From the NCBI GenBank assembly GCA_016192685.1, contig JACPTS010000001.1, positions 97,710 to 161,709 of the forward strand: a stretch of 64,000 nt of DNA, in the 5' to 3' direction. Source of the stretch: Candidatus Harrisonbacteria bacterium. Its GTDB lineage: Bacteria; Patescibacteriota; Minisyncoccia; UBA6257; 02-FULL-45-10c. The notes under the pieces are model-generated. The model saw only the letters and a list, made by a program, of their open reading frames with translations, was not told the DNA's origin and searched no databases. Every line of letters starts with the position of its first letter. Positions within the stretch are counted from its first letter, which is position 1. The position numbers and the translations under genes are program-made. Shown here piece by piece: positions 16,021 through 59,306 of the stretch.

Positions 16021-16050
16021 TCCCTCGATACATCGGGGGATTATTTTTTT
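16021..16050 (+). terminator. Rho-independent terminator (hairpin plus T-run)
   Basis: The hairpin tccctcgat-ac-atcggggga (9-bp stem, one U-G pair) is followed by ttattttttt, directly after the 15121-16020 gene. Confidence 0.7.
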
Positions 16051-26053: not shown

Positions 26054-28240
26054 CTACTTTTGCTTTTTAATTTCCTTAATAAGATTTTCTCCTTCGGTTT
26101 TAAATTCCGGGAAATCTTTTATGGCTTGTTCTAAAGCTTGGGTGGCGGAAGCTTTTTGATTAGCCAAAAGATGAGCGCCGCTTAAGCTTTTCCGGTATTC
26201 AAGATTTTTCGGTTCTAATTTAACAAAAGCCCCCCAGATGCCGGCTAAACGTTTATAATTTTGAACCCGCGAATAAACTTGCACTAAAATCTGATCGGCA
26301 ACATCCGCCGTACCAAATCCTTCCTGTAATAATTTTTCCGCTTCCCTTTGTTGATTATTTAATATGTAGGCGGCGGCTAAATTAATTCGTCCGTTATTAA
26401 ATTCTGAATCAAGTTTAAAAGATTTTTCCAAGACCGCGACGGCATTTTTATAATCCCCTTTTTGAATATAAACATCAGCAATTTCAAAATAAATCTGCTG
26501 TTTTTGAGGAGATAAATCCGAAGCTTTTTTAAAAACTTCTAAAGCTAAGTCTAAAAGGCCCACCTTATTGTAAATAGTTCCTAGAAAAAGATAAGGGCGG
26601 GGATCTAATGCATTTTCAACAACGCTTTTATCGGCTTCTTCAATCGCCTTACGGAGCATTCTGTCCCGAAAATCCGGGACGAGTTCCGGAAGGCCGCCGG
26701 CGCTAATGGCAAATCTTATCAATTGTTCCCCGATTTCTTGATTGCCCAAAGTATTATAAGACAAAGCTTTATTGAATTTTTCAAAAGCCAGCGGAATATT
26801 CTGACCCTGAATTGCTAAAGCATCCAAAAGATTCAAATTGGCCTGAAGAGGCTTAATATTAATAAAATAGATTGCTAAAACCAGCGGCGCGGCCAAAAGG
26901 CCGGCCGCTACCGGCCAATCGCCCCCCCTGCCTCCGCCAGCCGGCGGACTGACGCCGGGAACCGCGGTAGCGGCAGAGATACTATTAATATACGCGAGCA
27001 CGGCAAAAAAACCGATATAAGTGGCAATCTGGTCAAACACAAAAAAGTTTTCCGCTAAATAAACCGCTAAAAATGTGGTGAATAAAAGCGTATTTTCCAA
27101 AGTAAAATTGCCCTTGCGGTAATGGCTCCAAAGCAAATAAATCGCGACCGCAAAAATACTGAAATAAGATAAAGCGCCCAAAATTCCGGCATTAATCAGC
27201 CAATCAAAAACAATGTTATGAGATCGGTCAAACCACGGCTCCTGACGCCAAAGCTCCGATTTAAAATACTTGGAAAAAACCACGCCGTAATTATCCGGCC
27301 CCCAGCCTAAAATAGGCCGCTCCTTAAACCCTTCCCAGCCCATTCCCCAAATCGTGAAACGAGACCTGATAGTTCGTTCACTAAAAGAAAGAGAAGTCAG
27401 TCTAGCGAGAGTGGGGTTATTTTTTACAAACGGCTGATCTTTGGTTAAAAAAATTCCAAGGGGAATTATCAAAGCAATCAGCAGCCAAGCAAGAATAATT
27501 TCTTTTTTCACCAACTCCGCGTGATTTTCGGTCTTTTTAAAAATTAAATATAAAATGCCGAAAACAAAAATACCGATGATCAGGCCCAAAATCGCGCCGC
27601 GGGTGCCGGTAAAATAAATAGTTGCCAACGCCCAAACCGCCATCAAACCGTAAAAATACTTCTGCCATTTTTCCTTCGCCTCCAGCCAAAGAAACAGACA
27701 AAACCATAAAATAAATGTCAAATAAGCGGCTAAATAAGTCGGATTGCCGATGGTGCCGTCCACCCGATAAGAGCCGCCTTGAATAGCGGGCAGAAATTCC
27801 ATCCTTTGAAGAAAGGCGTAGGTATTTTCATAAATACTGGAAACGATAAAAAGGGTGAAAAAAATTTTCCAGTCGGATTTCCGGAAAACATGGGTCAAAA
27901 CCAAAAAATAAGCAAAAAGGTGCAAATAAGCCACCAATCCCTCCATCCGCTCATAATTAGACCAAAAACTTTTTGCCGGATTAACTCCGAAAATCGTCGC
28001 CAAGGCCACCACGGCAATAAAAATCGCCAGAGCGATTAAAAGCGGAGATTTCTTTGGCCGATACTCTTTATAGTAAATCGCTAAAAATACCCAGGCCGCA
28101 AAAACAACTTCTACGATTATCCGAAAAATAAAAGCTTTCCCGGTAATATAAGGAAAAAATAAAACTCGGGAAACATAAAGCGGAATAAACGGAACAATAA
28201 AAAGCCCCCCCTTAATAATCCATAAAATCGCTGATGGCAT
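26054..28240 (-). CDS. O-antigen ligase (Wzy_C)-like membrane protein with C-terminal TPR repeats
   Basis: 728 aa. About 12 TM helices with FTGTRGAILG (Wzy_C-type motif), then a soluble C-terminal region with TPR-like repeats (YNKVGLLDLALEVFKKASDL..., IQKGDYKNAVAVLEKSFKLD...). Confidence 0.8.
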   Translation of the reverse strand: MPSAILWIIKGGLFIVPFIPLYVSRVLFFPYITGKAFIFRIIVEVVFAAWVFLAIYYKEYRPKKSPLLIALAIFIAVVALATIFGVNPAKSFWSNYERMEGLVAYLHLFAYFLVLTHVFRKSDWKIFFTLFIVSSIYENTYAFLQRMEFLPAIQGGSYRVDGTIGNPTYLAAYLTFILWFCLFLWLEAKEKWQKYFYGLMAVWALATIYFTGTRGAILGLIIGIFVFGILYLIFKKTENHAELVKKEIILAWLLIALIIPLGIFLTKDQPFVKNNPTLARLTSLSFSERTIRSRFTIWGMGWEGFKERPILGWGPDNYGVVFSKYFKSELWRQEPWFDRSHNIVFDWLINAGILGALSYFSIFAVAIYLLWSHYRKGNFTLENTLLFTTFLAVYLAENFFVFDQIATYIGFFAVLAYINSISAATAVPGVSPPAGGGRGGDWPVAAGLLAAPLVLAIYFINIKPLQANLNLLDALAIQGQNIPLAFEKFNKALSYNTLGNQEIGEQLIRFAISAGGLPELVPDFRDRMLRKAIEEADKSVVENALDPRPYLFLGTIYNKVGLLDLALEVFKKASDLSPQKQQIYFEIADVYIQKGDYKNAVAVLEKSFKLDSEFNNGRINLAAAYILNNQQREAEKLLQEGFGTADVADQILVQVYSRVQNYKRLAGIWGAFVKLEPKNLEYRKSLSGAHLLANQKASATQALEQAIKDFPEFKTEGENLIKEIKKQK

Positions 28241-33462: not shown

Positions 33463-34148
33463 AAGGATTTCCTGGCCAAAATTATAAATTCATCATATTC
33501 CATAAATTTACCTTTTATATTCTTTAAAGAATGGCGCATTATATTTTCTAATCTGAATTTTTTAAATAATTCATTAATTTCACCAAGGTTAAAAAAATGC
33601 GCTAAGCCGGCGCGATAAAAGCTGCCTTCTTTAAAATTATTATAAGTATTTTTTCCTATTTTTTTACCGTATTTCTTATCCGGGTGATATTGGCTATAGG
33701 CAAAACTTATGAACAATCCGCCGGGCTTAAGCGATCTAAACACCTCATTCAATGCAACTACAATATCTGGTAAACAATTGGCGTAAATGCTTTCCCGGTC
33801 AATAATAATGTCAAAAAAATTATCAGGATAAGGCAAATTAAGAAAATCTCCTTGCAAAAAATCACCTTTTAAATGCCATTTTGAAAATCTTTCCTTACAA
33901 GCTCTGACAGCGGAATCTGACCCGTCCAGGCCAAAAACTTTAAAGCCGCTCTCGGCTAAAAATTTGGAGTTGTTGCCGGCCCCGCAGCCCAGATCTAAAA
34001 CTTTTATTTTGGATCTTTTTTCTCGCGGGATGGAAAAAAAATTCCTTGCTACGATACTTACCAAAATGTCATAAGGATAAAAATTAAGCTGGCGGCCCTT
34101 TGAATACACTTTCTTTTCCCAAACCTGTTGGTTAGATTTTTTTATCAT
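33459..34148 (-). CDS. class I SAM-dependent methyltransferase
   Basis: 229 aa. Motif I VLDLGCGAGNN. Confidence 0.8.
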   Translation of the reverse strand: MIKKSNQQVWEKKVYSKGRQLNFYPYDILVSIVARNFFSIPREKRSKIKVLDLGCGAGNNSKFLAESGFKVFGLDGSDSAVRACKERFSKWHLKGDFLQGDFLNLPYPDNFFDIIIDRESIYANCLPDIVVALNEVFRSLKPGGLFISFAYSQYHPDKKYGKKIGKNTYNNFKEGSFYRAGLAHFFNLGEINELFKKFRLENIMRHSLKNIKGKFMEYDEFIILARKSL

Positions 34149-35190
34149 GTTTAAAATATTTATATAAGACAGCTCTAATATATTTAATCTGCTTCCCTGA
34201 TAAGCTTGGGTAAATTGGCAAAGACAGGGTTGTTTTGGCCATTTCTTCGCTTACCGGATAATTTTTAGAAGGTAATCCTAAATAATTATGCAGTAATTCA
34301 TATCTTTCTATGGGGACAATTGTTTTAATTTTATTTTTTAAAAAATAATTTTGCAGCCGGCGGGGATTGCTTATTTTTAATATAAAACGGAAAAAATTGG
34401 GTTTAGTTAAACTATTTTTCTTAGGAAATATAATTTCGGGCGTATTCTTTGAATATGCATAGGCAATTTTCTGTCTTTTTTTTAAAAAAAATGGAAGTTT
34501 TTTAAGCTGAGCCCTGCCTATAGCGGCCTGCAGATCGGACATCTGGAAATTAAATCTCGGTTTATAATTCCTGCGGCAATCAAACTCCCGATAATCTTTA
34601 ATTTTCGCTATTAAATTTTTATTTTGGGAAAACACCATTCCCCCATAGCCGGTAGTCATCATCTTGGACGCGTAAAAAGAAAAAATCGCGATATCGCCGA
34701 ATGTACCGACATATTTATTATTAAATTTAGAACCCAGCGCTTGAGCGCAATCTTCAATTATCGGTATTCCCAAATTTAGAAACTTGCGCGTATCAGCCGG
34801 ATAACCGAAAGTATGGGTAATTATTATCGCTTTAGTTCTTCTGTTAACTTTTTTTACCGTCTCAAAATAAGAAAGATTTAAATTTTCAATATCAACTAAA
34901 ACCGGTCTGGCTCCAGCCATAAAAATCGCGTTAAGAACCGCCGAGCAAACATAAGTCGGTAAAATGACTTCGTCTCCCTTGCCGATACCCAAAGAAATCA
35001 GTGCCAGATAAAGAGCCGCTGTCCCGCTGGAAACCGCTGCCGCCTGCCCGGGCTTTTTAAATAAAAATCCGCTGAACTCATCTTCAAACTTTTTTACTTC
35101 GCTTCCCTGCGCTACCCAGCCGGATTTTATAACTCTAGCCGCAGCATCTATTTCTTCTTTGCCTAAAGTCGGTTTATTGTGAGGAATCAT
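34132..35190 (-). CDS. DegT/DnrJ/EryC1/StrS-family PLP-dependent sugar aminotransferase
   Basis: 352 aa. N-terminal SGWVAQGSEVKKFEDEF and a PLP-lysine region (FSFYASKMMTTG). Confidence 0.85.
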   Translation of the reverse strand: MIPHNKPTLGKEEIDAAARVIKSGWVAQGSEVKKFEDEFSGFLFKKPGQAAAVSSGTAALYLALISLGIGKGDEVILPTYVCSAVLNAIFMAGARPVLVDIENLNLSYFETVKKVNRRTKAIIITHTFGYPADTRKFLNLGIPIIEDCAQALGSKFNNKYVGTFGDIAIFSFYASKMMTTGYGGMVFSQNKNLIAKIKDYREFDCRRNYKPRFNFQMSDLQAAIGRAQLKKLPFFLKKRQKIAYAYSKNTPEIIFPKKNSLTKPNFFRFILKISNPRRLQNYFLKNKIKTIVPIERYELLHNYLGLPSKNYPVSEEMAKTTLSLPIYPSLSGKQIKYIRAVLYKYFKHDKKI

Positions 35191-35626
35191 TTTTATAGTA
35201 ACCCTCTTTTATAACAGGCGGATTTCCTATCACCAATGAATAAGGAGGGATTTCGCACGGCTTGGTGATAATTGTTCCGGCCGCCACAACGGTATGATGA
35301 CCGATATGGACGCCGCCGCCGATAAAACAATGGGAACCGATAAAAACATCATTATCAATGGCAATCTTTCTCCTTTCAATTTCTTTTGCTAAGCCGACAG
35401 CCTTTTTATGCGAATCAGCTACATTAATACTGACAAACGAAGCAATGTCGCAATTATCCCCTATTTTTACCAAGGATTCTTGGGCATTAACTTCGGAAAA
35501 AAGCCCGATATAAACATTTTTCCCGAATTCCGGCTGGCCGCCAATATAAACCAAGGGATGAAATTGATTAGCGGGCATCTTAATTAATTTAGCGATAATT
35601 TTATAAAATACGTTCATAATGTTCAT
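35174..35626 (-). CDS. hexapeptide-repeat (LbH) acetyltransferase
   Basis: 150 aa. Repeated [LIV]GxxxxI hexapeptides (IGDNCDI, IGSHCFIGGGVHIGHHTVV). Confidence 0.8.
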   Translation of the reverse strand: MNIMNVFYKIIAKLIKMPANQFHPLVYIGGQPEFGKNVYIGLFSEVNAQESLVKIGDNCDIASFVSINVADSHKKAVGLAKEIERRKIAIDNDVFIGSHCFIGGGVHIGHHTVVAAGTIITKPCEIPPYSLVIGNPPVIKEGYYKNDSSQ

Positions 35627-36681
35627 AAATCTCCCTTCCTAATTATATCGCCCTTTTTGAAATTTCTTTTTGCTATTTTGCCTATAACCTTCGGCAAATA
35701 TTTCGGCGGCAATCCTGTCCCCGGCCTTTTTACTTCCAAATCCTGGACTTTAATTTTTTCTCCTTTTTTAACCGGATTGGCAAACATAATGCTTCTCCGG
35801 GCGATTTTTTTCATTTCCAGTTCTTGCCGGGATAATTTAAATTCCGAACTTCCCGGCATTTGCTCCGCTTCCCTGACTTGCTTAACCAAAAAGTCCAGTT
35901 CTTTCGGATCAGCCGCGAACCAATGATCCGGTCCGGGCAGATTCTTATCCAGAGTAAAATGCTTTTCAATCATTTTTGCTCCCAGAATTACGGCGATGAC
36001 GGCCGCGGCACTGCCCTCGGTATGATCAGAATAACCGATAACGCAATCTTTATAAATCTTTTGCAAAGTTTTAATCTGCGTTAAATTCGCTTCTTTTGGC
36101 GGAGTAGGATATAAAGAAGCGCATTTTAAAATAACTATCTTATTATTATATTTTTTTATTGTGTTTACTGCGTCTTTTATTTCTTCCAAAGCGCTCATCC
36201 CCGTAGAAATAATCATCGGCTTTTTCTTTTGGGCATAATACGCCAGCATCGGAAGATTGGTCAGGTCGTCGGAACCGACCTTAATGGCCGGCATTCCGAT
36301 TTCTTTACCGCAGAGATAATCAACTGTTTTAAAACTATTGTCTTGCGGAGTGGAGAATATGATTATTCCGATTTTCTTGGCATATCCGAATAAATCCTTT
36401 TGCTTTTTTTTATTTAATTCATTCCTTTTAAACATCCCGTATTGGGACTCGGTAATTTTTCTTCCTTGGCTTTTATAGGTATACATTAAATTCTTGTCGC
36501 CGACGAAATCTTCCGTGACAAAGGATTGCAATTTAACGGCATCAGCGCCGGCTTTCTTGGCAGCCGCTATCATTTTTTTAGCCAGGTTTAAATTGCCGTT
36601 ATGATTGATGCCCAATTCCGCCACTATAAAAGTTTTATTCCTGCCGCCTATTTTTTTATTGCCGATTTTTATCTCCGTCAT
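35623..36681 (-). CDS. NeuB-family ulosonic-acid synthase (N-acetylneuraminate/pseudaminate/legionaminate synthase family)
   Basis: 352 aa. IVAELGINHNG, KLQ, YSDHTEG, IEKHFTLDK and a C-terminal SAF/antifreeze-like domain. Confidence 0.88.
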   Translation of the reverse strand: MTEIKIGNKKIGGRNKTFIVAELGINHNGNLNLAKKMIAAAKKAGADAVKLQSFVTEDFVGDKNLMYTYKSQGRKITESQYGMFKRNELNKKKQKDLFGYAKKIGIIIFSTPQDNSFKTVDYLCGKEIGMPAIKVGSDDLTNLPMLAYYAQKKKPMIISTGMSALEEIKDAVNTIKKYNNKIVILKCASLYPTPPKEANLTQIKTLQKIYKDCVIGYSDHTEGSAAAVIAVILGAKMIEKHFTLDKNLPGPDHWFAADPKELDFLVKQVREAEQMPGSSEFKLSRQELEMKKIARRSIMFANPVKKGEKIKVQDLEVKRPGTGLPPKYLPKVIGKIAKRNFKKGDIIRKGDL

Positions 36682-37346
36682 TTGAATTGGTAAGTGCCGT
36701 TTTTAATTTGCCTCACTCCTTGTTTTTCTAATTTAATTCTTTCTTTCATCGCTCTGCTTTTACGGGCCCGGGTAATAATTTTACGCCAAGCTTCCGGCTC
36801 ATACTCCATAACGATATCTTCGGCCGATTTTATTTTTAACTTTGATAAGTTAAGCATTTTTTTTAACGGCCGCAAATCAGCAACATATTTTATCATTGCC
36901 AGAATGCGCGGCAAATGATGTTCATTTGAAATTACAACAGCGCTACGAAATACTCCTCCTTTAAGTATCTTTTGTAATTCTTTCAACTGCTGATAGGTAG
37001 TGCCGGATTTTTCTTCTTTAATTATATTTTTTGCCGGAATGCCAAGTTTAACCAATTCTTCTTTTATCACGCTGGCTAAAGTAATTTTTCCGGGTAAAAC
37101 ATCCTTTAGCTGGCCCTTGCCGCCAGAGGCAATAATTAATTGCTTCGGATTTTCTTTGTATAAAAAACCGGCAGCTATCACTCTTAATCTGTCTCCGCTA
37201 ATGCCGAAATTATCGCCTGTATCGTCAAAAGTAGTAGTGCGCCAGCGACCGCCTTCTTTTACCAAACCGCCGCCAAAAATTACCAAGACATCTAAATTCT
37301 TCATTATTATATAGAACAAAAAATTGGGGCGGCAGTAACAAATCAA
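36678..37346 (-). CDS. DUF218 (YdcF/ElyC/SanA-like) protein
   Basis: 222 aa. IFGGG...IASGG pattern typical of DUF218. Confidence 0.65.
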   Translation of the reverse strand: MICYCRPNFLFYIIMKNLDVLVIFGGGLVKEGGRWRTTTFDDTGDNFGISGDRLRVIAAGFLYKENPKQLIIASGGKGQLKDVLPGKITLASVIKEELVKLGIPAKNIIKEEKSGTTYQQLKELQKILKGGVFRSAVVISNEHHLPRILAMIKYVADLRPLKKMLNLSKLKIKSAEDIVMEYEPEAWRKIITRARKSRAMKERIKLEKQGVRQIKNGTYQFK

Positions 37347-37840
37347 GTAACAATTAGATCAACTTCTTCCCCGTTTTTAATATAAAGCGCATTTGCTTCA
37401 TCAGTATCCAGATGAACCCGAAAATCAAAATTTGGGCTCACCCGAACCAGCACTTTATCCAATCGGCCGGCCCGGACGCCGCCTTTTTGAATAGCCACTT
37501 CATCGCCGTCTTTTAATCCGAGTTCCTGGGCTTGGCGGTCAGAAATATGCAGATGCCGCAATGTTACGGCATATCCGGTTTCTTTATTTCTTTTCCATTT
37601 TGGCGCTGTATCGCGGCCAAAACGCTTAATCCAATCAGTTAAAGACAATTCAAATTGGTCCTCCGATCGGCAAGGCATAATCACCCGAAAATCCTCCATT
37701 CCGTCGTTATAATATTCTTTACTCGCCCATTGTTCCGGCTGGGATAAATCTTTCAGCTTAGTCAATTTCAAACCGGATTTTTTTAAAGTTTCCTCGGTTA
37801 AATGACAATGCTTATTGGAAACCTCGCAGATTACTTTCAT
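37343..37840 (-). CDS. PduL-family phosphate acyltransferase-like protein
   Basis: 165 aa. Two PduL half-repeats: VSNKHCHL and RHLHIS...LGLKDGDEV...GVRAGRLDKVLVRVSPNFDFRVHLDTDEANA. The latter closely matches the Salmonella PduL C-repeat (RHIHMS...LGVKDGDSV...VRVSPKF...HLDTDEANA). Confidence 0.7.
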   Translation of the reverse strand: MKVICEVSNKHCHLTEETLKKSGLKLTKLKDLSQPEQWASKEYYNDGMEDFRVIMPCRSEDQFELSLTDWIKRFGRDTAPKWKRNKETGYAVTLRHLHISDRQAQELGLKDGDEVAIQKGGVRAGRLDKVLVRVSPNFDFRVHLDTDEANALYIKNGEEVDLIVT

Positions 37841-37849
37841 AATTTATTT

Positions 37850-38887
37850 TCAAACTTGGTGCAAATCCGCTTCTTCTACCAAACGCAACAATTCACTTAG
37901 ATCTAATTTAGGAGCGTGTTCGGAAGAAAATTGAATTCCCTTAACTCCCTTAACCGTTGAAGGATAAACCTTAGCGTATTCCCTATTATTTACTTTCTCA
38001 TGGGGAGTTAAAATATACATGTCCTCGGTTTCTAAAACTTTGTCCACCTCATGATTGGCTAAAAGCTGTTCATGAAATTTTTCTCCATCCCGCGCCCCAA
38101 TAACTTTAATCTTTACGTCTTCCTTTTTTTTACCGGCCAAAGGAGCGTAATAATGCACGGCCGCGTCAATTAAATCTCCCAACCGAACCGAGGGCATCTT
38201 CAAAATAAAAATTTCCTGGCCCTGGCTTAAGTTTGCCGCCCGCAAAACCAAATTAACAGCCTGGGGAATGGTCATGACAAACCTGGTCATGTCCGGAGCC
38301 GTAATTGTTATTTCTTTATTGCCAAAAATCTGTTTCCTTAAAAGCGGAAGGAGGCTGCCGCGGCTGCCCAAAACATTGCCGAAACGGACGCAAGAAAACT
38401 TAGTCCTTTTACCGCCTCCATAATAATAGGTGGCTAAAAAAAGTTTTTCAGCCATCAGTTTGGAAACACCCAAAACGCCCTGCGGTTCGGCAACTTTATC
38501 GGTGGAAATCCCGATTACTTGTTCCACATTTTCTTCCCGCGCCGCCTCAATTACATTTTGAACACCGATAATATTAGTTTTTACGGCTTCAAAAGGATTA
38601 TATTCGCAGATTGGAACTTGTTTTAGGGCGGCGGCATGAAAAACAATATCCACGCCATCCATTGCCATTCGCAAACGATCTTTATCTCGAACATCTCCCA
38701 CTATAAATCTAAGCGTTGAATTACCCAAACCAAAATCATGCATCAAATGATAATGGCGGTCTTCATGCCGGGCAAAAATTCGGATTGCCTTGGGATTATA
38801 TTTAAGAAGCTGACGGACAATCTCTAAGCCGATAGAACCTGTGCCGCCGGTCACTAAAATTGTTTTACCTTCAAATTGATTTTTCAT
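37850..38887 (-). CDS. UDP-GlcNAc 4,6-dehydratase (PseB/FlaA1/CapD family)
   Basis: 345 aa. ILVTGGTGSIG, HAAALKQVP, and the TDKAxxP-like block (ISTDKVAEP). Confidence 0.85.
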   Translation of the reverse strand: MKNQFEGKTILVTGGTGSIGLEIVRQLLKYNPKAIRIFARHEDRHYHLMHDFGLGNSTLRFIVGDVRDKDRLRMAMDGVDIVFHAAALKQVPICEYNPFEAVKTNIIGVQNVIEAAREENVEQVIGISTDKVAEPQGVLGVSKLMAEKLFLATYYYGGGKRTKFSCVRFGNVLGSRGSLLPLLRKQIFGNKEITITAPDMTRFVMTIPQAVNLVLRAANLSQGQEIFILKMPSVRLGDLIDAAVHYYAPLAGKKKEDVKIKVIGARDGEKFHEQLLANHEVDKVLETEDMYILTPHEKVNNREYAKVYPSTVKGVKGIQFSSEHAPKLDLSELLRLVEEADLHQV

Positions 38888-40014
38888 TGTTTTTTAATAG
38901 TAGAGATTAATTTTTCGCAAATATATTTGATGTCTGATTCTTTTAAACCAATATAAAAAGGCAACGCCACTGCTTTATTGCTAACATTTTCAGAAATTGG
39001 AAAGTCACCTTCTTTATAACCAAACAAGTTCTTGTAAAAACTAAACAAATGTATAGAAGGCAAATACGGCTTCGTGCTAATTCCTTCCGCTGCTAATTTT
39101 TCAATCAGCTGATTCCGGTTTATTTTTTTATTTTTAAGCGAAACTACATAGACAAACCAGGTGTGGATATTAGCTGGAGCAATAACGGGAACCTGAATGA
39201 AATCGGAATGCGGCTTTAAATATTTTGTATACATTTCAGCAACCTTTCTTCGTTCTGATAAAAGAAAATCAATCTTCTCAATCTGGGCCAATCCGGCAGC
39301 CGCGCTTAATTCATCCATCCGATAGTTATAGCCAAGCCGCTCATGATCCAGCCATTGCATATTTTCCGCCCGGCCCTGATTCCGAAGACTGCGGAATAGT
39401 TGGTCTGATTTTTTATCATTAGTGACAATCATCCCGCCCTCGCCGGTGGTCATTTGCTTATTGGGATAAAAAGCGAAAACCGCTGATTCGCCAAAAGTGC
39501 CAACTTTCCTCCCCTTATAAGTAGCGCCAATGCTTTCGCAGACATCTTCAATGATTTTTAATTTGTATTTTTTGGCGATTTTCATTATCGGATCCATATC
39601 AGTCGCTTGGCCGAAAATATGCACCGCTAAAATCGCTTTGGTTTTTTTGGTAATCTTTTCTTCAATTTTTGCCGGGTTCATATTATAGGTAACCGGATCA
39701 ATATCAACAAAAACCGGCTTAGCGCCGACATATAAAATAGAATTCGCCGAAGCGACAAAAGAAAATGGGGTAGTAATCACTTCATCGCCCGGACCGATGC
39801 CGGCGGCAATCATGGTTAAATGCAACCCAGCCGTGCCGCTGGAAACCGCGCAAGCATATTTAACTCCCATAAAATCAGCGAATTTCTTTTCAAATAATTC
39901 TATTTTAGGGCCAATGCTCAAAATCCCGGAGCGCAAAACTTCTAGAACGTATTGTTCTTCTTTTTTGGTAATATAAGGTTTTGCTATTGAATATTTCTTT
40001 TTTGTTTTTTTCAT
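38884..40014 (-). CDS. DegT-family PLP-dependent aminotransferase (PseC-like)
   Basis: Start placed at the internal Met (MKKTKKKYSIAKPYITKKEE...); the ORF track extends to 40194. Typical DegT N-terminus and FSFVASANS / PLP region. Confidence 0.85.
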   Translation of the reverse strand: MKKTKKKYSIAKPYITKKEEQYVLEVLRSGILSIGPKIELFEKKFADFMGVKYACAVSSGTAGLHLTMIAAGIGPGDEVITTPFSFVASANSILYVGAKPVFVDIDPVTYNMNPAKIEEKITKKTKAILAVHIFGQATDMDPIMKIAKKYKLKIIEDVCESIGATYKGRKVGTFGESAVFAFYPNKQMTTGEGGMIVTNDKKSDQLFRSLRNQGRAENMQWLDHERLGYNYRMDELSAAAGLAQIEKIDFLLSERRKVAEMYTKYLKPHSDFIQVPVIAPANIHTWFVYVVSLKNKKINRNQLIEKLAAEGISTKPYLPSIHLFSFYKNLFGYKEGDFPISENVSNKAVALPFYIGLKESDIKYICEKLISTIKKQ

Positions 40015-40115
40015 TTTAAATGCGTTACTGCTATCTATATAAAACCAAAAAATAAGCCTAAAAGTTTTTAATGAAAATCCACGCAATGGCGTGGATTTTG
40101 TGTAAAGATTATTCT

Positions 40116-40550
40116 TTATTTTTTCCTCCGTTTTCTCAATTTTTCCGAATATTCTTCTGTGGTCATTAAAAATCTGGCCGGTGAACCAGCCCAAACTTCA
40201 TTAGGCGGCAAATCTTTATTTACAAAACTCTGCGCTCCGACAATGGTATTTTCACCAACAGTAATGCCCGGCATCACGATGCTATGCGAACCGATTCGGC
40301 AATTCTTTTTAAGAACCACCAACCCTTGTTTATCATCAATAGTAGAGGCTGAATAAAGGGTGCAATGGGAGCCTATTTGTACTTCATCTTCAATCGTCAC
40401 GCCATGGTGCGCGAAAATCGCGGTAAATGCTCCGATATCTGTTTTTTTACCAAGCTTAAAATTCTCCGGACGATAAACTACCCAATTCCATTTGGTAAGT
40501 TTTCCGTGCTCAATTTTTGGCAGTTGCCAATTTTTAAATCGATTATTCAT
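40116..40550 (-). CDS. hexapeptide-repeat (LbH) acetyltransferase
   Basis: 144 aa. IGSHCTLYSASTI, IGSHSIVMPGITVGENTIVGAQSFV. Confidence 0.8.
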   Translation of the reverse strand: MNNRFKNWQLPKIEHGKLTKWNWVVYRPENFKLGKKTDIGAFTAIFAHHGVTIEDEVQIGSHCTLYSASTIDDKQGLVVLKKNCRIGSHSIVMPGITVGENTIVGAQSFVNKDLPPNEVWAGSPARFLMTTEEYSEKLRKRRKK

Positions 40551-40557
40551 AAATTAA

Positions 40558-41235
40558 TTATTTAATTTTAAAAAGTTTCTTAGCTAATTCAAGGTCTTCA
40601 AAAGTATCTATGTCAACACTTCTTTCAAATGGTATCACGTATTTGCCCAAATCTTTTCCATAATATTTTTTCTCTTTCAAAAAATTAGCAACCTTCACCC
40701 AGCGCACCGCTCCCGAGGGGCAATAGACTTTGGGCAATTTTTTTGAATCAACCAAATATTTTTTCCCAAAAAAGAAATCCAGACGCCCATTTTTTTCTTC
40801 CAGTGCCCAAAACGGATACAGCCAATAGTAATCAACCACGCTCATTAAGCAATTTTTCTTTAATTTCCGTAAAATTTCGTAGGATTTCTTGACGTCTTCC
40901 GAATTTCGCAAGGGGCAATTCGGCATCAGCAGGCATAAATAATCAAATTTTGTTTTAACATTTTTCAACAAATGCGCGGTCACGTCTTCTAATGACGCCT
41001 TATCGCCGGAAATTTCCGCCGGGCGAAGAATCTTTTTAACGCCTTTATAAGAATCGGCCGCGTTTAATATTTCCTCTGAATCAGAAGAAATATAAATACT
41101 ATCGCCAAAAAGCCCTGATTTTATAGCCGCTTCAATTGTATGGGCAATCATCGGCTTGCCGTGAAAATCAACAATATTCTTTTTGGGAATTCTTTTTGAA
41201 CCGCCCCTGGCCGGAATAAGACAAATATTTTTCAT
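40558..41235 (-). CDS. acylneuraminate cytidylyltransferase family (CMP-ulosonic-acid synthetase)
   Basis: 225 aa. N-terminal ICLIPARGGSKRIPKKN signature. Confidence 0.85.
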   Translation of the reverse strand: MKNICLIPARGGSKRIPKKNIVDFHGKPMIAHTIEAAIKSGLFGDSIYISSDSEEILNAADSYKGVKKILRPAEISGDKASLEDVTAHLLKNVKTKFDYLCLLMPNCPLRNSEDVKKSYEILRKLKKNCLMSVVDYYWLYPFWALEEKNGRLDFFFGKKYLVDSKKLPKVYCPSGAVRWVKVANFLKEKKYYGKDLGKYVIPFERSVDIDTFEDLELAKKLFKIK

Positions 41236-42086
41236 ATTGTTTTGAATTCAATCGCCAGAGCCGTGGCTTCGGCCTGGGCAATATGAGTCATATGAGTTCT
41301 TTTGCTCTCAATTTCCCGAATACGAGAAAGCATGCCAACAAGACCCTGACGATGATACGCGCCAAGAATAACTTTACCCATTTCATCGGCATTGCGGCTC
41401 TCGGCAAACTCAATCATGCCGTCAGTAAATAAAAGCAAAGTCTTTAATTCTTTCAGCGGTAAAGTTGTTTTATACCAGCTATTTTCCGCTCCTGACTGGC
41501 CATTAAGAACAACTGCCTTTTTATCTAAATTTTTATTTACTCTTTCAATCCGCAATTTAGCGGAGATAGGCATATATTCAAGCCAGGCTCTATTGCGATC
41601 GCCGTGGTATTTTTTAATAATGTTATTAATAATATTGATACACTCTTCTTCATTAAGAATATTTTGATTTGATGTTGCTCCTATTTCCCCGTTAGTTTTT
41701 TCCCATACCGCATAGCAATCGCCCCCCTGCAAAATTTGGATGCCGTCTTCTCCTATTTTTACAAAAGCAAAAGCCATTCCCGGCAATAAGTCCGCGCGAT
41801 TCATATCAATCCCCTGCGATTCAGAAAATTCCCGAAGTCGGGCATTTGCTTTTTTTACAACCGCGATCAATTCGTCGCTATCGTTCGCTTGAGTAAAAAC
41901 CTCATCCACTATTTCAACGGCCTTTTGCCCGCCGGATTTGCCGCCAAAAAGCCTTGGCCCGACTGCCGGGTCATAAAGTCCGCTTACTCCATCCAGCACT
42001 CCAAAAAACGGCGGGTGAAAAACAAGTCTATCTTCCAAAATCTTTGCCGTTCCCGAATCATAAAGAGTTTTTACCCGAAAATCCAT
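41232..42086 (-). CDS. PP2C/SpoIIE-like protein phosphatase domain protein
   Basis: 284 aa. GVLDGVSG (cf. PP2C GxxDGHGG), GGDCYAVW, and LLFTDGMIE (cf. the DG[LV]WD motif). Assignment is moderate. Confidence 0.55.
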   Translation of the reverse strand: MDFRVKTLYDSGTAKILEDRLVFHPPFFGVLDGVSGLYDPAVGPRLFGGKSGGQKAVEIVDEVFTQANDSDELIAVVKKANARLREFSESQGIDMNRADLLPGMAFAFVKIGEDGIQILQGGDCYAVWEKTNGEIGATSNQNILNEEECINIINNIIKKYHGDRNRAWLEYMPISAKLRIERVNKNLDKKAVVLNGQSGAENSWYKTTLPLKELKTLLLFTDGMIEFAESRNADEMGKVILGAYHRQGLVGMLSRIREIESKRTHMTHIAQAEATALAIEFKTI

Positions 42087-42092
42087 AATATT

Positions 42093-43103
42093 TTAAAAGT
42101 CAGAATATTTTAATATCGTATTTTTAACCAAATCCCGTTTAGCTCTTTTTCCAAGCACCTTAGCCATTTCCGAAGAAGGAATTCCGGTCCCGGGCCTTTT
42201 GACTCCCAGCAGATCCTCGGTTATTTTGGTTCCCTTTGAAATATTTACATTGGCAACCAGACTGCGCCGGAAAGCTTTCCGCATTTCTTTTTCTCTCGCC
42301 CCGGGCGCGATATTTTTTTCATTGGAATTAACAGCTTTATCAAAAAATCTGATTTGCTCAGCCATCTTTTTAAATTCCGCCGGGTCAGCCGAACTTGGCT
42401 GGTCCGGGCCGGGCATGTTTTTATCCAAAGTAAAATGCTTTTCAATTATTTTAGCTCCCAAAGCAACCGCAGCAACCGGCGCGAAAATATCCAGAGTATG
42501 GTCAGAATAACCGATAATGTGTTCGGGGAAAGCTCTTTTTAAAATTCCAATTCTTTGCAAATTCAATTCTTCGGCTTTAGGCGGATACAGCGAAACACAG
42601 TGTAAAATCCCCAGATTCTTTTTCCGGTCTTTTAAAATTTGGACTGCTTCTTCTATTTCTTCCATATCTCCCAAGCCAACTGAAATAATTATCGGTTTTT
42701 TTGTTTTAACAACTTCCTTCAATAAAAAATGGTTATTTAAATCGCAAGAAGCAATTTTAAAAAGCGGGGCGCCGATTTTCTCCAGCATTGCGATTGACCG
42801 CTTTCCGAAAACCGACGCGAAAAAAATAATTCCTTCCTTTTTGGCAAAATCAGCCAATTTAACATAGTCATCGCCGGATAATTCCCAGCCCTTTAACATT
42901 TCAAAAAAACTCTGCCCGCCCTTAACATGCTCCGCTTTCCGCGCTTCCTCAATAATCAACTCTTCGGTTTTAAAGGCCTGAAATTTTACCGCGTCAGCAC
43001 CGCAGGCTTTTGCCGCGGTAATCAGTTTTTTAGCGGTCTCAAAATCACCGTTATGGTTAATACCGGCTTCGGCAATGATAAAAACGGAGTCTTTTTTAAA
43101 CAT
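42093..43103 (-). CDS. NeuB-family ulosonic-acid synthase (second copy)
   Basis: 336 aa. IIAEAGINHNGD, KFQ, YSDHT, IEKHFTLDK and a C-terminal SAF domain. Confidence 0.88.
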   Translation of the reverse strand: MFKKDSVFIIAEAGINHNGDFETAKKLITAAKACGADAVKFQAFKTEELIIEEARKAEHVKGGQSFFEMLKGWELSGDDYVKLADFAKKEGIIFFASVFGKRSIAMLEKIGAPLFKIASCDLNNHFLLKEVVKTKKPIIISVGLGDMEEIEEAVQILKDRKKNLGILHCVSLYPPKAEELNLQRIGILKRAFPEHIIGYSDHTLDIFAPVAAVALGAKIIEKHFTLDKNMPGPDQPSSADPAEFKKMAEQIRFFDKAVNSNEKNIAPGAREKEMRKAFRRSLVANVNISKGTKITEDLLGVKRPGTGIPSSEMAKVLGKRAKRDLVKNTILKYSDF

Positions 43104-47949: not shown

Positions 47950-48549
47950 TTAATCTGTAATGCTCCAGTTATAATCGCCTTTGCTGGCGCGATAGAGTTT
48001 GCATTTTTTAATGTCCGCGGAAGAAAGACTAAGCGCTTCACAATCTAAATTAGAATTAAAATCAATAGTTGTCAGCGTGCTTCTGGAAAGATTAATAGTG
48101 CTGCCAAGAGCGTAATTATCCGAAGAGCTGGGATTGCTAGCGGTATTAGCGGATTGCGACGCCGGTTGAATAATATTGCCGTTAACATCCACTAAAGCGC
48201 CATTTGGCAAACGAAAAGTTCCTGATGGCAAAGATGGGGCTGGAGATGGAGTGGGCGGAGCCGGTGAAGCTTTTTTCAACGCTTCCAAAAATTGGGCGGT
48301 TTGCGCCAATTTCTCTTCTATTTCCGTTTTTTTGGTTTTTGCCGTGGTCTGAACAACTGATTTTTCTTCTTTTTCCGGCTGACTAATGGCCGCTTCCTGA
48401 ACTATCTCCTGACTGCTGGTTGCGGCGACCGGCGCTTCGAAAACCCCGCTTTGTGGGGCTAAAGGCGCGGAAACCAAACCAACCGCCACTAAAATCGTTA
48501 CGGCAACGGACGCTATTTTATTAAAAACTGCGCTTAAAAATCCCCACAT
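47950..48549 (-). CDS. hypothetical secreted/anchored protein with a Pro-rich linker
   Basis: 199 aa. N-terminal TM, then KLAQTAQFLEALKKASPAPPTPSPAPS, the same style as the repeats in the 23454-24386 protein. Confidence 0.45.
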   Translation of the reverse strand: MWGFLSAVFNKIASVAVTILVAVGLVSAPLAPQSGVFEAPVAATSSQEIVQEAAISQPEKEEKSVVQTTAKTKKTEIEEKLAQTAQFLEALKKASPAPPTPSPAPSLPSGTFRLPNGALVDVNGNIIQPASQSANTASNPSSSDNYALGSTINLSRSTLTTIDFNSNLDCEALSLSSADIKKCKLYRASKGDYNWSITD

Positions 48550-48574: not shown

Positions 48575-50074
48575 TTAAAATTTCAAAATATGCCCCTGAA
48601 CAGTTAAAATCAGCTCTACAATTTCCCGAACCGCGTGCTGCCCGCCCTTGGCTGCCGCGACATAATCAACAATGGATCTTATTCTCGGATGGGCATCGGC
48701 AACCGTGATTGATACTCCAACCACATTAAAAACCGCTTCATCATTTAAATCATCGCCAATATAAGCCGCTTCTTTTTGAGAAAATCCGTACTCCGACATA
48801 ATCCTTTTTAAAATTTCCGCTTTTCCGCCGGCATCGGCTACGCCTTGCGAACATTTAATATTCCAAGTTTTACAACGGGCAGCCACTACCGGATTAATTG
48901 TTTTAGAAATGACGTAGGGTGTGATGCCAAACCGTTTCAGCATTTCAATGCTTAAACCATCTTTACGGCTGCAACGCACGGTTTCTTTCCCGTTTTGGTC
49001 AATATAAACAAATCCATCGGTTAGCACGCCGTCAAAATCCATTGCCAATAACTTAACATTTTTTAACTTTTCGGCTAATTCTTGATTAGAAAACCAGATC
49101 GCCCTCCTGGGAAAAATAATTCTTACCATCGCCCAAGACTTATCATCAAATAACACGAAAGCCAGTAAAAAAATCAGTGTGCCGAACGCCTTAAAAAAAG
49201 TCGCCGGCTCGCCAAAAAACAAAACTCCAAAAATCATCGTCATAATCAAATAACTGCTGTTCATTACCAAATTTTTAAAAGCGATAAAAGCGCCAAATTT
49301 ATAACTTAAAAGATTGAAAATCAAGGCGCCGACAAAAAATACGCTGGTACCGGCCGCTGCTAACCAAAACTTCCGCATTGACAAAGAAAAATCAGCTAAT
49401 AACTCAACCTGATTTAACCAAAATAATCCTCCCAAAGAAACCAAAATCGTTGCTAAACCTCCCCAAAAACTCAATGTCAAAGGATGAGATTCTTTAATCC
49501 ATTGGGCAATCCCTTGAATAACCGCCAAAAGCAGCATCACCGCAAAAGACAATTCAATCCAAAGCGGCAAATTAGAAATCTCCGCCAAAGACGGATAACC
49601 GAGAACTGTATATCCGGCTGCTGCGGCAAACACAATGCCTAAAATCTTCCGAAAATTTAAGGTATTGCCGAAAAGAAAATAACCAATCAGCGCTCCGGGA
49701 ACTATGGATAAAGTAACAATTAAAGTATTGACGCCTACATCTCCGCCGCTAGCAAAAACCAAAAAAGTGAGGATAGTGGCAACTGAAAAAATAATCCCAT
49801 ATAAAATTGCTCCGAAAATATGTTTTGGGGCATCCAGAATACTGCCTAAAGATTTATCAGTAAGTCCCCGGCTGACAGCATAAATAACCTGAAACAAACC
49901 AATAACTAAAGTAGCGGCATAAGCATGGCCAAAAGTAACGCTGAGCTGGCCGACGGATTTCTGAAATAACTTAGCTCCAGTTTTAAAAACCGCTTCCAGC
50001 AAAATCCATTTCATCCAGGACTCACCGGCCATCTTTCTGCCATCCCAAAATATCTTTAAAAAATTATTTGCCAT
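48575..50074 (-). CDS. polytopic membrane domain fused to a KdsC-family (HAD-IIIA) ulosonate-phosphate phosphatase
   Basis: 499 aa. About 330 aa with 9-10 TM helices, then LLAMDFDGVLTDG...GDDLND...KGG, which is the KdsC/YrbI signature. Confidence 0.75.
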   Translation of the reverse strand: MANNFLKIFWDGRKMAGESWMKWILLEAVFKTGAKLFQKSVGQLSVTFGHAYAATLVIGLFQVIYAVSRGLTDKSLGSILDAPKHIFGAILYGIIFSVATILTFLVFASGGDVGVNTLIVTLSIVPGALIGYFLFGNTLNFRKILGIVFAAAAGYTVLGYPSLAEISNLPLWIELSFAVMLLLAVIQGIAQWIKESHPLTLSFWGGLATILVSLGGLFWLNQVELLADFSLSMRKFWLAAAGTSVFFVGALIFNLLSYKFGAFIAFKNLVMNSSYLIMTMIFGVLFFGEPATFFKAFGTLIFLLAFVLFDDKSWAMVRIIFPRRAIWFSNQELAEKLKNVKLLAMDFDGVLTDGFVYIDQNGKETVRCSRKDGLSIEMLKRFGITPYVISKTINPVVAARCKTWNIKCSQGVADAGGKAEILKRIMSEYGFSQKEAAYIGDDLNDEAVFNVVGVSITVADAHPRIRSIVDYVAAAKGGQHAVREIVELILTVQGHILKF

Positions 50075-51002
50075 GATTAACTAACTCCTCACAAATCTTT
50101 TTTGCAACCGCATATTGAGTTTCCGGAGTAAAAGTAGCAATATGCGGCATGGCAATAACTTTCGGGTGAGAAATCAAACGCTTAAGAATTTCATTATTAA
50201 ACGGCGGCTCTTCGGAAAATACGTCCAAAGCAACGCCGGCAACCCACCCGGATTCAACCGCCGCCAGCAACGCCTTTTCATCTGTCACTTCTCCGCGCGA
50301 AGTATTAATTACATAGGCTCCTGGTTTTAATAAAGATAATAATTTTTCATTAACTATTTGCTTGGTAAGGTCAGTCAATGGCACATGGAAAGTAATAAAA
50401 TCGCTTTTTTGAAGCAAGGTTTCCAATTCTGATTTTTCCACGCCAATACTCTTTAAAAAATCTTCATCATAGACTATATCATTTGCCAGCACCCGCATCC
50501 CTAAATTTCGCGCCATTTTCGCAACCTCTTTGCCGATATTTCCCAAACCGACGATTCCAAGAGTTTTCCCGGAAACTTGCGTTGCCGATGTCCGTTTCCA
50601 CTTGCCTTCTCTCATGTCATTGGCAAACGGCACGATATTGCGAGCCAAAGTAAAAATAAAAGCCATGGTCAGCTCGGCAACCGAATGTTTATTAATGCCG
50701 GGAAAAAACTTTAACGCAATTCCCCGCTCTTCCAGCGCCGGAATATCAATATGTTCTAACCCCACTCCAAATGGCATTACCACTTTAAGATTGGGAAATA
50801 GCGAAAATTCTTTTTTGCCAACCGGCAATAAAGCTCCGGCTACCATCGCCGCCACCTCTTCGGGATTAAAAGAAAATGGCGGGTTAAGCCGCTCATCTAG
50901 CACAACGCGCCAACTATGCTCATCTAAAAATTCCGCCAGGTCAGGAGAACGGACAATAGTATTAGAAAATGACGGAGTGGTGGTAAGAACTATTTTGGCC
51001 AT
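50064..51002 (-). CDS. D-isomer-specific 2-hydroxyacid dehydrogenase
   Basis: 312 aa. GKTLGIVGLGNIGKEVA and the catalytic R/E/H arrangement with PHIA. Confidence 0.85.
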   Translation of the reverse strand: MAKIVLTTTPSFSNTIVRSPDLAEFLDEHSWRVVLDERLNPPFSFNPEEVAAMVAGALLPVGKKEFSLFPNLKVVMPFGVGLEHIDIPALEERGIALKFFPGINKHSVAELTMAFIFTLARNIVPFANDMREGKWKRTSATQVSGKTLGIVGLGNIGKEVAKMARNLGMRVLANDIVYDEDFLKSIGVEKSELETLLQKSDFITFHVPLTDLTKQIVNEKLLSLLKPGAYVINTSRGEVTDEKALLAAVESGWVAGVALDVFSEEPPFNNEILKRLISHPKVIAMPHIATFTPETQYAVAKKICEELVNHGK

Positions 51003-52165: not shown

Positions 52166-52169
52166 TTTA

Positions 52170-52886: not shown

Positions 52887-52898
52887 TGATATTACAAC

Positions 52899-53810: not shown

Positions 53811-53880
53811 AATATCGTAATTATATAACCCGCAAACAATACAAATAGTAATAAAAAAATACCCGTATTCTACAGGTATT

Positions 53881-55646: not shown

Positions 55647-55735
55647 ATCTCCTTTTATATTAGAACTATAAAAGATAACAAAATTTCCCGCATATCAGTC
55701 ACTGCGTCATAAACGAGCTACCTATCTGCCATGCG

Positions 55736-55757
55736 GCCTGCCTGCCGGCAGGCAGGC
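55736..55757. other. perfect 22-bp GC-rich palindrome in an intergenic region
   Basis: gcctgcctgccggcaggcaggc, between an SDR gene end and the aldolase gene start. Confidence 0.8.
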
Positions 55758-55772
55758 AACTACGGAGAAAAA

Positions 55773-56573: not shown

Positions 56574-56593
56574 AAATATTTTAATTATTAATT

Positions 56594-57397: not shown

Positions 57398-57402
57398 TAT
57401 AA

Positions 57403-59294: not shown

Positions 59295-59306
59295 TTTAAA
59301 AAAATA

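Follow-up and report, generated by a model that had tools for sequence, protein, structure and literature searches.

A DUF218 protein, a mini-PduL and a PP2C-fold protein as possible parts of a nonulosonic acid pathway in Candidatus Harrisonbacteria

The window analysed here, a 64-kb stretch of DNA from Candidatus Harrisonbacteria (Parcubacteria, candidate phyla radiation, CPR), contains a one-strand glycan operon of ~50 kb with two NeuB synthases. All coordinates are positions in this window. The operon encloses a segment, 36678-42086, in which three unexpected genes are found: one for a protein of the DUF218 (YdcF-like) family, one for a small PduL-like phosphotransacylase, called mini-PduL below, and one for a divergent PP2C-like protein. 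A plausible but, as a whole, tentative reading is that the three are working parts of a CPR-specific pathway for nonulosonic acids (NulOs) of the pseudaminic or legionaminic type, each with the specific role set out below. The DUF218 protein is very probably an integral enzyme of this pathway, and the chances are even or slightly better that it is the nucleotide-sugar hydrolase. A hydrolase is proposed because this step lacks a gene, because the neighbourhood of DUF218 is conserved and because DUF218 is found fused to enzymes of the flanking steps. Both the missing hydrolase step and the role of DUF218 were overlooked by the first-pass annotation, which was made from the sequence of the window alone. 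The genes of the segment and its immediate surroundings are as follows.

42093-43103, minus strand: NeuB2 nonulosonate synthase (NeuB and SAF domains; PF03102, E 6e-80)
41232-42086, minus strand: divergent protein with predicted PP2C fold (284 aa, single domain, cytoplasmic; NCBI HYY86_00720)
40558-41235, minus strand: cytidine monophosphate (CMP)-nonulosonate synthetase, a PseF-like cytidylyltransferase (PF02348, E 5e-23; TIGR03584 PseF, 172 bits, under cutoff)
40116-40550, minus strand: LbH (hexapeptide) N-acetyltransferase 1, NeuD/PglD-like (PF00132, E 2e-12; TIGR03570, E 1.5e-18)
38884-40194, minus strand: DegT/PseC-like sugar aminotransferase 1 (PF01041, E 1.5e-127)
37850-38887, minus strand: PseB-like UDP-N-acetylglucosamine (UDP-GlcNAc) 4,6-dehydratase 1 (PF02719, E 4e-99; TIGR03589, 323 bits, under cutoff)
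37343-37840, minus strand: putative mini-PduL phosphotransacylase (165 aa; PF06130, E 2.9e-32; NCBI HYY86_00695)
36678-37304, minus strand: DUF218/YdcF-like protein (208 aa, cytoplasmic; PF02698, E 8e-17; 'YdcF family protein' at NCBI)
35623-36681, minus strand: NeuB1 nonulosonate synthase (PF03102, E 2e-81; TIGR03569, 358 bits, under cutoff)
35174-35626, minus strand: LbH N-acetyltransferase 2 (PF00132, E 1e-8)
34132-35190, minus strand: DegT aminotransferase 2

The three NCBI records, which belong to a metagenome-assembled genome of Candidatus Harrisonbacteria on a 608-kb contig, match at 100% identity. All three open reading frames (ORFs) lie on the minus strand where the first-pass annotation had put them, with DUF218 listed as 36678-37346, and the two NeuB synthases, two LbH acetyltransferases, PseB-like, PseC-like and PseF-like proteins that it had named were confirmed by Pfam/NCBIfam. 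Module 1 comprises NeuB2, the PP2C-like protein, the CMP-transferase, an LbH acetyltransferase, the aminotransferase and the 4,6-dehydratase; module 2 comprises DUF218, NeuB1, an LbH acetyltransferase, an aminotransferase and tailoring enzymes. The stop codon of DUF218 is overlapped by NeuB1 by 4 nt.

The nucleotide is normally stripped from a di-N-acetylated nucleoside diphosphate (NDP)-hexose by PseG, the UDP-2,4-diacetamido-2,4,6-trideoxy-beta-L-altropyranose hydrolase, or by the hydrolysing 2-epimerases LegG/NeuC, giving NeuB its free sugar. The clusters do encode equivalents of PseB, PseC, PseH (or LbH), PseI/NeuB and PseF. The hydrolase scan of the window, by Pfam with NCBIfam also used, covered 54 of the 56 non-nested ORFs of at least 110 aa (left out were the 1352- and 2369-aa ORFs, nested ORFs and ORFs under 110 aa), and among these 54 no match to Epimerase_2 (NeuC/LegG) or to a PseG-type protein was found. 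DUF218, the PP2C-like protein and the other scanned window ORFs themselves gave no match to PseG (TIGR03590) or NeuC/LegG (PF02350), and Epimerase_2 and PseG were likewise not found in the related loci L001, L013, L015 and L016. Since neither hydrolase is present in the scanned ORFs, nucleotide removal is the sole canonical step that lacks an assigned gene. Both NeuB proteins score higher with the NeuB/LegI-type model than with the PseI model (for NeuB2, 364 bits with TIGR03569 and 275 bits with PseI, both under cutoffs), so that more than one hexose is possible, and the reaction may be hydrolysis alone or hydrolysis with 2-epimerisation.

Loci outside the window are related CPR or metagenomic clusters; L and P numbers are labels for the compared loci and proteins. 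A metagenome scan for the DUF218 subfamily gave 72 loci, all of them chosen for carrying DUF218 and labelled by BLAST and hidden Markov model searches with the window proteins and a few seed sequences, with the typical order PseB, DegT, (WbuX/GATase/HisF amidotransferase), CMP-transferase, class-III aminotransferase, DUF218, NeuB and GNAT. Of the 33 well-flanked copies, defined by at least 1.1 kb of sequence to either side, 25 have NeuB no more than 300 bp away, 29 no more than 1.5 kb away and 31 anywhere in the locus. In 37 of 53 observable cases, NeuB was the first labelled gene to follow DUF218. Of the three unexpected genes, DUF218 has the most consistent link to NeuB. In Parcubacteria GW2011_GWC2_42_12 (L013/L014), two NeuB genes are present and each has its own adjoining DUF218, and the module 2 order DUF218-NeuB-LbH...WbqC-PIG-L recurs in L013 and L032. 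Single-ORF fusions of DUF218 and GNAT, in either order, were identified in six cases (L041, L050, L053, P0193, P0224 and P0234); the C-terminal GNAT of the last three best matches PseH TIGR03585, with E values of 7e-11 to 7e-7, under the NCBIfam cutoff. Cytidylyltransferase-DUF218 fusions occur in L006 and L058. The commonest gene directly upstream of DUF218 (16 of 55 visible cases, for example L021, L026, L029, L037, L065 and L083) encodes a class-III aminotransferase (Aminotran_3, ~440 aa), which is not present in the window.

The DUF218 assignment of the first-pass annotation stood, with PF02698 scoring 61.8 bits against a cutoff of 27.6. Both the NCBI record and the homologues have 208 aa and begin MKNLDV, corresponding to the ATG at 37304, which is probably the true start; the TTG at 37346, with a 4-nt overlap with mini-PduL, is an unlikely one. 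The ATG start places a 38-nt spacer between the two genes. Searches of the DUF218 sequence against the PDB gave chance matches only, and the fold call rests on an AlphaFold model (predicted local distance difference test, pLDDT, 94.9). The best PDB match of this model by Foldseek, and the only solved structure that it matched, is E. coli YdcF (3CA8; probability 1.0, template-modelling (TM) score 0.51). Across 81 DUF218 sequences, conservation of the three residues T103, H130 and E162 is 90% or higher. They resemble the T125/H149/E182 triad that SanA requires for its function (PMC12176290), a likeness compared by spacing (27 and 32 residues here, 24 and 33 in SanA). At 90% identity the subfamily falls into 89 clusters, and those with a taxon name are all CPR.

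A mechanism can be proposed in which the cytoplasmic DUF218 protein would cleave the nucleotide from the di-N-acetylated NDP-hexose, possibly with epimerisation, at a conserved Thr-His-Glu-type site in a nucleotide-binding Rossmann-like fold, and would hand its product to the NeuB encoded directly downstream. DUF218 would then take the same pathway slot as PseG and LegG/NeuC, between the N-acetyltransferase and the NeuB-family synthase, and like them it is encoded next to the synthase. In some bacteria PseG is fused to a PseH-like GNAT, as DUF218 is in the fusions named above. PseG and NeuC are, however, two-domain GT-B proteins, whereas DUF218 is predicted to be a single YdcF-type Rossmann-like domain of ~205 aa without sequence or fold kinship to them, which makes it a putative functional analogue and not a family member. 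Its own relatives in E. coli are YdcF, SanA and ElyC, which share the PF02698 family, the fold (as YdcF 3CA8) and a link to envelope glycans, with a Thr/His/Glu triad of similar spacing in SanA. SanA and ElyC are periplasmic proteins with a membrane anchor, genetically tied to lipid-linked precursors of peptidoglycan and enterobacterial common antigen (ECA), whereas the CPR subfamily is soluble, cytoplasmic and encoded beside NeuB, with an invariant C-terminal motif of its own (R189, E193, G196, Y205). A bolder proposal, less likely than not, is that the DUF218 domain is a new class of sugar-diphosphate hydrolase whose cytoplasmic CPR form replaces PseG/LegG and cleaves NDP-diacetamido-trideoxyhexose for NeuB, with the PP2C-fold enzyme recruited alongside for small-molecule sugar chemistry and mini-PduL for the supply of acetyl-CoA.

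Several points weigh against a hydrolase role for DUF218. The match to the YdcF fold is silent on chemistry, and YdcF has been described as SAM (S-adenosylmethionine)-binding. Thirty unlabelled neighbour ORFs of the DUF218 loci, recurrent or singleton, contained no PseG and no Epimerase_2 by Pfam/NCBIfam, which favours the hydrolase role, but the absence of PseG from the 72 loci was checked in these 30 ORFs only. PseG, LegG or the acetate kinase AckA could be encoded in the genome outside the scanned 64-kb window. Five loci (L038, L049, L056, L077 and L079) carry two NeuB genes and one detectable DUF218 each, and these same loci broke a rule, now rejected, by which the number of NeuB genes equals that of DUF218, PP2C-like and Epimerase_2 genes together, and which had held in the first eight architectures. 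The complementarity of DUF218 and the known hydrolases is furthermore a biased phyletic test, because the loci were picked by their DUF218 content. Two of the five loci also contain long stop-to-stop ORFs that include NeuB (L077:2687-4321, 545 codons; L079:13163-15103, 647 codons), the extra length of which could be an added domain or just upstream non-coding sequence.

These points bear on an alternative in which DUF218 belongs to the pathway but is not its hydrolase, being instead an epimerase, an esterase/deacetylase, a tailoring enzyme that uses SAM, or a NeuB scaffold; the nucleotide would then be removed by an enzyme encoded elsewhere or otherwise by NeuB's partner. Such a role would suit the description of YdcF, the sole solved DUF218 protein, as SAM-utilising, the fusion of DUF218 to a GFO oxidoreductase in L064 and L072, the class-III aminotransferase that precedes it in 16 of 55 visible cases and the loci with two NeuB genes per DUF218, and it gains from the restriction of the scans to the window, the remaining genome lying beyond them. 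The clusters, however, already hold dedicated methyltransferases, deacetylases and oxidoreductases, and the 30 unlabelled ORFs were found to encode methyltransferases, FemAB, BFO_1060-type NulO transferases, a formyltransferase, an ATP-grasp enzyme, a metallophosphoesterase, WbuX and flippases. Among the canonical steps, only the hydrolase is left without a candidate, and the fusion partners of DUF218, PseH-like GNAT and CMP-transferase, represent the steps that flank PseG and PseI. Moreover, Epimerase_2 accompanies DUF218 in only one of the 72 loci (L084), where it lies on the opposite strand. We regard a non-hydrolytic role as somewhat unlikely and keep the hydrolase as the preferred reading.

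The PP2C-like protein gave a mixed result. The first-pass annotation had assigned it to PP2C, and as to fold this assignment stood, while at the profile level it failed: PF13672 (PP2C_2) scored 22.4 bits (E 1e-4) against a cutoff of 24 and SpoIIE 17.2 against 25, and no NCBIfam match was found. A weak PP2C_2 match is given by 12 of 22 family members, with a best E value of 2e-5. Against the PDB by sequence, the single sequence and the family profile both gave chance matches only. The AlphaFold model (pLDDT 91.3; predicted TM score 0.90), in contrast, found almost only PP2C phosphatases among the top 50 PDB matches listed by Foldseek (PstP, Stp1, PPM1B, tPphA), with a best E value of 2e-10 and a probability of 1.0. 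On this model the protein almost certainly has a PP2C fold. Taken together with the PduL and DUF218 calls, which both held, the earlier interpretation is thus supported in part.

Compared with the PP2C/PPM Ser/Thr phosphatases (PstP, Stp1, tPphA, PrpC), the same fold is predicted (TM 0.55-0.69), and putative equivalents of the ED, DGxxG, GD and DG motifs are invariant. In 22 aligned members, E18, D19, D32, G33, D123, D222, G223 and E273 are invariant, and they follow the PP2C motif order ED, DGxxG, GD, DG and a final Asp replaced by Glu, at the expected secondary-structure positions, as judged from the alignment and the model. In the last motif, Glu273 stands where Asp is expected. The differences are the sub-threshold Pfam score, this change of the final 'DN' to Glu273, long helical insertions and the location in a biosynthetic operon without a kinase nearby. 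The first-pass annotation had also described 4-nt overlaps on both sides of the gene; the overlap with the cytidylyltransferase gene is real, and on the other side the gene begins 6 nt after the NeuB2 stop codon.

A word-indexed search gave 26 clusters of PP2C-like relatives, and an exhaustive profile search gave 250 representatives (50% identity, E <= 1e-30), or 859 at E <= 1e-3; the profile-search matches listed aligned almost all near full length (~255-350 aa). A scan of GTDB genomes gave two loci. The gene adjoins NeuB modules in L001, L008, L010 and L017, and the closer members (at least 42% identity) sit in NeuB modules, as in L008 with its order NeuB-PP2C-LbH. In L010 the gene lies near NeuB-LbH-DegT-PseB-CMP-transferase-ABC, whose proteins are 54-66% identical to those of module 1 in the window. 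No DUF218, PduL or Epimerase_2 was found in the modules of L008 and L010. No kinase, FHA or other signalling gene adjoins the PP2C-like gene in eight contexts. These contexts, together with the lack of an adjoining kinase or FHA gene, tie the protein to amino-sugar or glycan synthesis.

Within module 1, where DUF218 is absent, the PP2C-like protein may be a metallo-phosphoesterase whose most likely substrate is a sugar-phosphate or nucleotide-sugar intermediate. Of the inferences made here, this role is the weakest. Action on a small-molecule substrate is less likely than not, with a regulatory protein phosphatase almost as probable. To our knowledge, every biochemically characterised PP2C-fold enzyme is a protein phosphatase, and the operon already holds a KdsC-type phosphatase (48575-50074). 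The distant members (32-39% identity; L009, L011 and L012) are divergently oriented beside DegT and a long PglF-like dehydratase, and a marine member (L089) lies near GT4 and BNR genes; NeuB is not in range in any of these four, and these facts, too, speak against a small-molecule role in NulO synthesis. In L009, two tandem PP2C-like paralogues (L009:5283-7528) stand beside genes for a phosphoglycosyl transferase, a split transketolase, DegT and the PglF-like dehydratase; NeuB was not found on this 9.6-kb contig.

The regulatory alternative holds that the protein is a Ser/Thr protein phosphatase that controls glycan or surface-layer synthesis, with, for example, a pathway enzyme, a glycosyltransferase or a transporter as its target. 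Its structural neighbours are all protein phosphatases, and the wider family is large, at the 250 clusters given above. Since it also occurs in the glycan contexts without NeuB (L009, L011, L012 and L089), a general regulator would fit better than a NulO-specific enzyme. The alternative is nevertheless rated as doubtful: none of the eight contexts has an adjoining kinase, FHA or signalling gene, the gene is part of a tightly packed enzyme operon with its 4-nt overlap onto the cytidylyltransferase gene, and the protein is without a regulatory or membrane domain.

The order of NeuB2, a phosphatase-fold protein and a cytidylyltransferase mirrors the synthase, phosphatase and CMP-activation steps of the KDN-9-phosphate synthase/phosphatase pair of Bacteroides and of NANS/NANP in animals. 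The phosphatases of those pairs are HAD enzymes, which the PP2C-like protein is not, and the operon has a KdsC-type HAD enzyme. Module 1, moreover, looks 6-deoxy (giving a 9-deoxy-NulO), so that no 9-phosphate would be formed, unlike in the KDN-9-phosphate and NANS/NANP pairs. A role as NulO-9-phosphate phosphatase was considered and, for these two reasons, found less likely.

The PduL assignment made in the first pass proved sound. Mini-PduL matches Pfam PF06130 (PTAC) with 112.3 bits against a cutoff of 25 and aligns over residues 3-160 with the PduL structure 5CUO (E 7e-21); it falls under the NCBIfam equivalog cutoffs (PRK15070, 112 against 209; EutD, 91 against 315). The zinc ligands and the coenzyme A (CoA)/phosphate contacts were mapped from the rPduL structure of Erbilgin et al. 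(PMC4784909). The six ligands H48, H50, E109, H157, H159 and H204 correspond to H11, H13, E64, H96, H98 and H143 here, and equivalents of the CoA contacts S45, K70, R97 and N211 are kept, as are those of R103, Q107 and R194. Across 42 subfamily members of 150-180 aa, conservation at these positions is complete or at least 95%. Mini-PduL thus appears to have, by sequence, the same two-domain di-zinc fold as the PduL/EutD-type microcompartment phosphotransacylases, with the six ligands and most of the contacts in common.

The differences from the microcompartment enzymes are equally consistent. Microcompartment PduL is ~190-230 aa long and has an encapsulation peptide, whereas mini-PduL has 165 aa and begins at the first catalytic strand, which leaves no N-terminal encapsulation peptide. 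No BMC (bacterial microcompartment) shell domain was found among the Pfam matches of the scanned window ORFs. The whole subfamily has lost the GPKG hairpin, the encapsulation peptide and a segment of ~20 residues that includes the 'RDSGD' loop with Ser127, and it has gained invariant Trp38 and Trp70. Mini-PduL also differs in its amino-sugar operon and in the direction proposed for it, toward acetyl-CoA. From its sequence it is very probably an active phosphotransacylase of a distinct 'mini' form.

Five architectures were identified around mini-PduL. The order PseB-PduL-DUF218-NeuB is found in the window, L001, L002 and L017; PseB-DegT-PduL-GFO-aminotransferase-CMP-transferase in L003 and L004; NeuC-LbH-PduL-DegT-PseB in L005; DegT-PduL followed by amidotransferase genes in L006; and SDR-PduL-GT4-GNAT-DegT, with NeuB not in view, in L007. 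In all five, mini-PduL adjoins DegT or a dehydratase, and an acetyltransferase is encoded within ~5 kb. Its constant partner is the dehydratase/aminotransferase pair, not NeuB. The idea that mini-PduL supplies acetyl-CoA fits this partnership, because the pair makes the amino group that must be acylated.

Mini-PduL, as a di-zinc enzyme, would most likely convert acetyl-phosphate and CoA into acetyl-CoA and so re-charge the CoA freed by the two N-acetyltransferases, within a small CoA pool that may have few other users. Recycling of CoA for neighbouring enzymes would be conceptually the same role as that of microcompartment PduL. Supply of acetyl-CoA to the N-acetyltransferases had already been suggested in the first pass; it fits the intact catalytic and CoA residues and the position beside the aminotransferase and dehydratase, and it is put at about an even chance. 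Directly upstream of DUF218-GNAT-PseB in L015 lies an ATP-citrate-lyase-like trio (L015:6096-10081; ATP-grasp_2/Citrate_bind, CoA_binding/Ligase_CoA and Citrate_synt). This would be a second source of acetyl-CoA in a NulO cluster and therefore lends independent support to the supply idea. On the other side, the Ser127 loop, which positions phosphate in rPduL, is deleted, and no source of acetyl-phosphate was found in the scanned window ORFs. Mini-PduL is also rare (~37 clusters at 90% identity, against 89 for DUF218), so that most CPR NulO clusters do without it. A role as the housekeeping phosphotransacetylase of CPR was rejected, given this rarity and the constant occurrence in amino-sugar clusters; Parcubacteria are predicted to use an ADP-forming acetyl-CoA synthetase (PMC9698310), which also counts against it.

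Mini-PduL might instead N-acylate the 4-amino sugar itself, with an acyl-phosphate or acyl-CoA donor, or supply an acyl group other than acetyl, such as propionyl; characterised PduL enzymes do use propionyl-CoA (PMC4784909). The gene directly follows the aminotransferase in L003 and L006, where an N-acyltransferase would be expected, and L003 has no acetyltransferase between PduL and the CMP-transferase. The loss of the Ser127 phosphate-positioning loop and the gain of Trp38 and Trp70 are further points in its favour. Against this, the CoA contacts and the phosphate-contact Arg103 are kept, and each of the five architectures also encodes a separate acetyltransferase no more than ~5 kb away. 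We know of no N-acyltransferase activity in the PduL fold. Direct acylation is therefore improbable, and acetyl-CoA supply is retained as the preferred role.

A sporadic insertion, which the first-pass annotation had kept open, is very improbable: PduL and the PP2C-like gene do occur in only one architecture (L017) among the 72 DUF218-selected loci, which makes them dispensable for most CPR NulO clusters, but homologues of each of the three, 30-88% identical, accompany the same pathway genes in other, related CPR glycan clusters, in several different arrangements, and GC content (~0.37-0.42 along the operon) shows no break at the three genes, the composition of the region equalling that of the rest of the operon.

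The minus strand carries every ORF from ~64 kb to 26 kb, densely packed with many overlaps of 1-47 nt. The annotated TTG start of the first DegT gene is probably too far upstream, with the real start ~66 codons further in: the TTG start would place 79 nt of the gene inside the upstream LbH gene, the Pfam domain begins at residue 74, and the L001 orthologue has 370 aa. After the second DegT gene, module 2 continues down to 30084 with a methyltransferase, WbqC, a PIG-L deacetylase, ADH and GFO, and further downstream follow a GT4 glycosyltransferase, a second methyltransferase and a Wzy_C and TPR protein. The last of these (~730 aa; 26054-28240, minus strand) is O-antigen-ligase-like, is a recurrent end gene of CPR NulO clusters (also in L005, L011, L015, L016, L017, L067 and L077) and could be the ligase or O-oligosaccharyltransferase that handles the acidic glycan. 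Adjoining the glycan cluster, two giant ORFs of 2369 and 1352 aa are found at 16049-23158 and 5682-9740 (minus strand).

The upstream part of the operon encodes two KpsC/S-like Capsule_synth proteins, an ABC exporter and a fusion of an EamA-like membrane domain to a KdsC/YrbI-type HAD phosphatase (48575-50074, minus strand, 499 aa). This unusual transporter-like/phosphatase fusion scores 115.9 bits with TIGR01670, over the cutoff of 106.95, and 85.7 bits with the KDN-9-phosphate phosphatase model. Between the fusion and the ABC exporter genes lies a 199-aa ORF (47950-48549, minus strand) that has no Pfam/NCBIfam match. A second sugar-acid module (50064-60284, minus strand) encodes two 2-hydroxyacid dehydrogenases, an enolase-superfamily (MR_MLE) enzyme, a PF04199 cyclase, an HpcH/HpaI aldolase, two SDRs, two more CTP_transf_3 cytidylyltransferases, a third DegT and a second PseB-like dehydratase. 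The operon therefore has three cytidylyltransferases for two NeuB genes, and because of this difference a third CMP-activated keto-acid sugar may be made by the module through a class-II aldolase route.

In the literature searched, DUF218/YdcF is not co-mentioned with PseG, NeuB or NulO, PduL is not co-mentioned with NulO or CPR, and CPR/Patescibacteria are not co-mentioned with nonulosonic or pseudaminic acid. The ElyC and SanA papers give genetic roles in envelope synthesis only, with no reaction known (including PMC12176290).

NulO pathways are thought to be well mapped, with six enzyme steps each, and a large uncultivated group appears to run one in which the hydrolase step is unassigned. 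The bacterium studied here gives ~50 kb of a ~0.6-Mb contig to acidic surface sugars, and CPR may keep an acetyl-CoA supply of their own within glycan operons, by mini-PduL here and by the ATP-citrate-lyase-like genes in L015. What the window offers is a known pathway in a variant form, which gives a testable function, with a concrete substrate, to a widespread and long-standing domain of unknown function, members of which (SanA and ElyC) affect the synthesis of peptidoglycan and ECA. If the proposal is true, it would provide the first biochemical activity for the DUF218 family of YdcF, SanA and ElyC, and it would suggest that the periplasmic SanA and ElyC act on analogous undecaprenyl-diphosphate-linked sugars.

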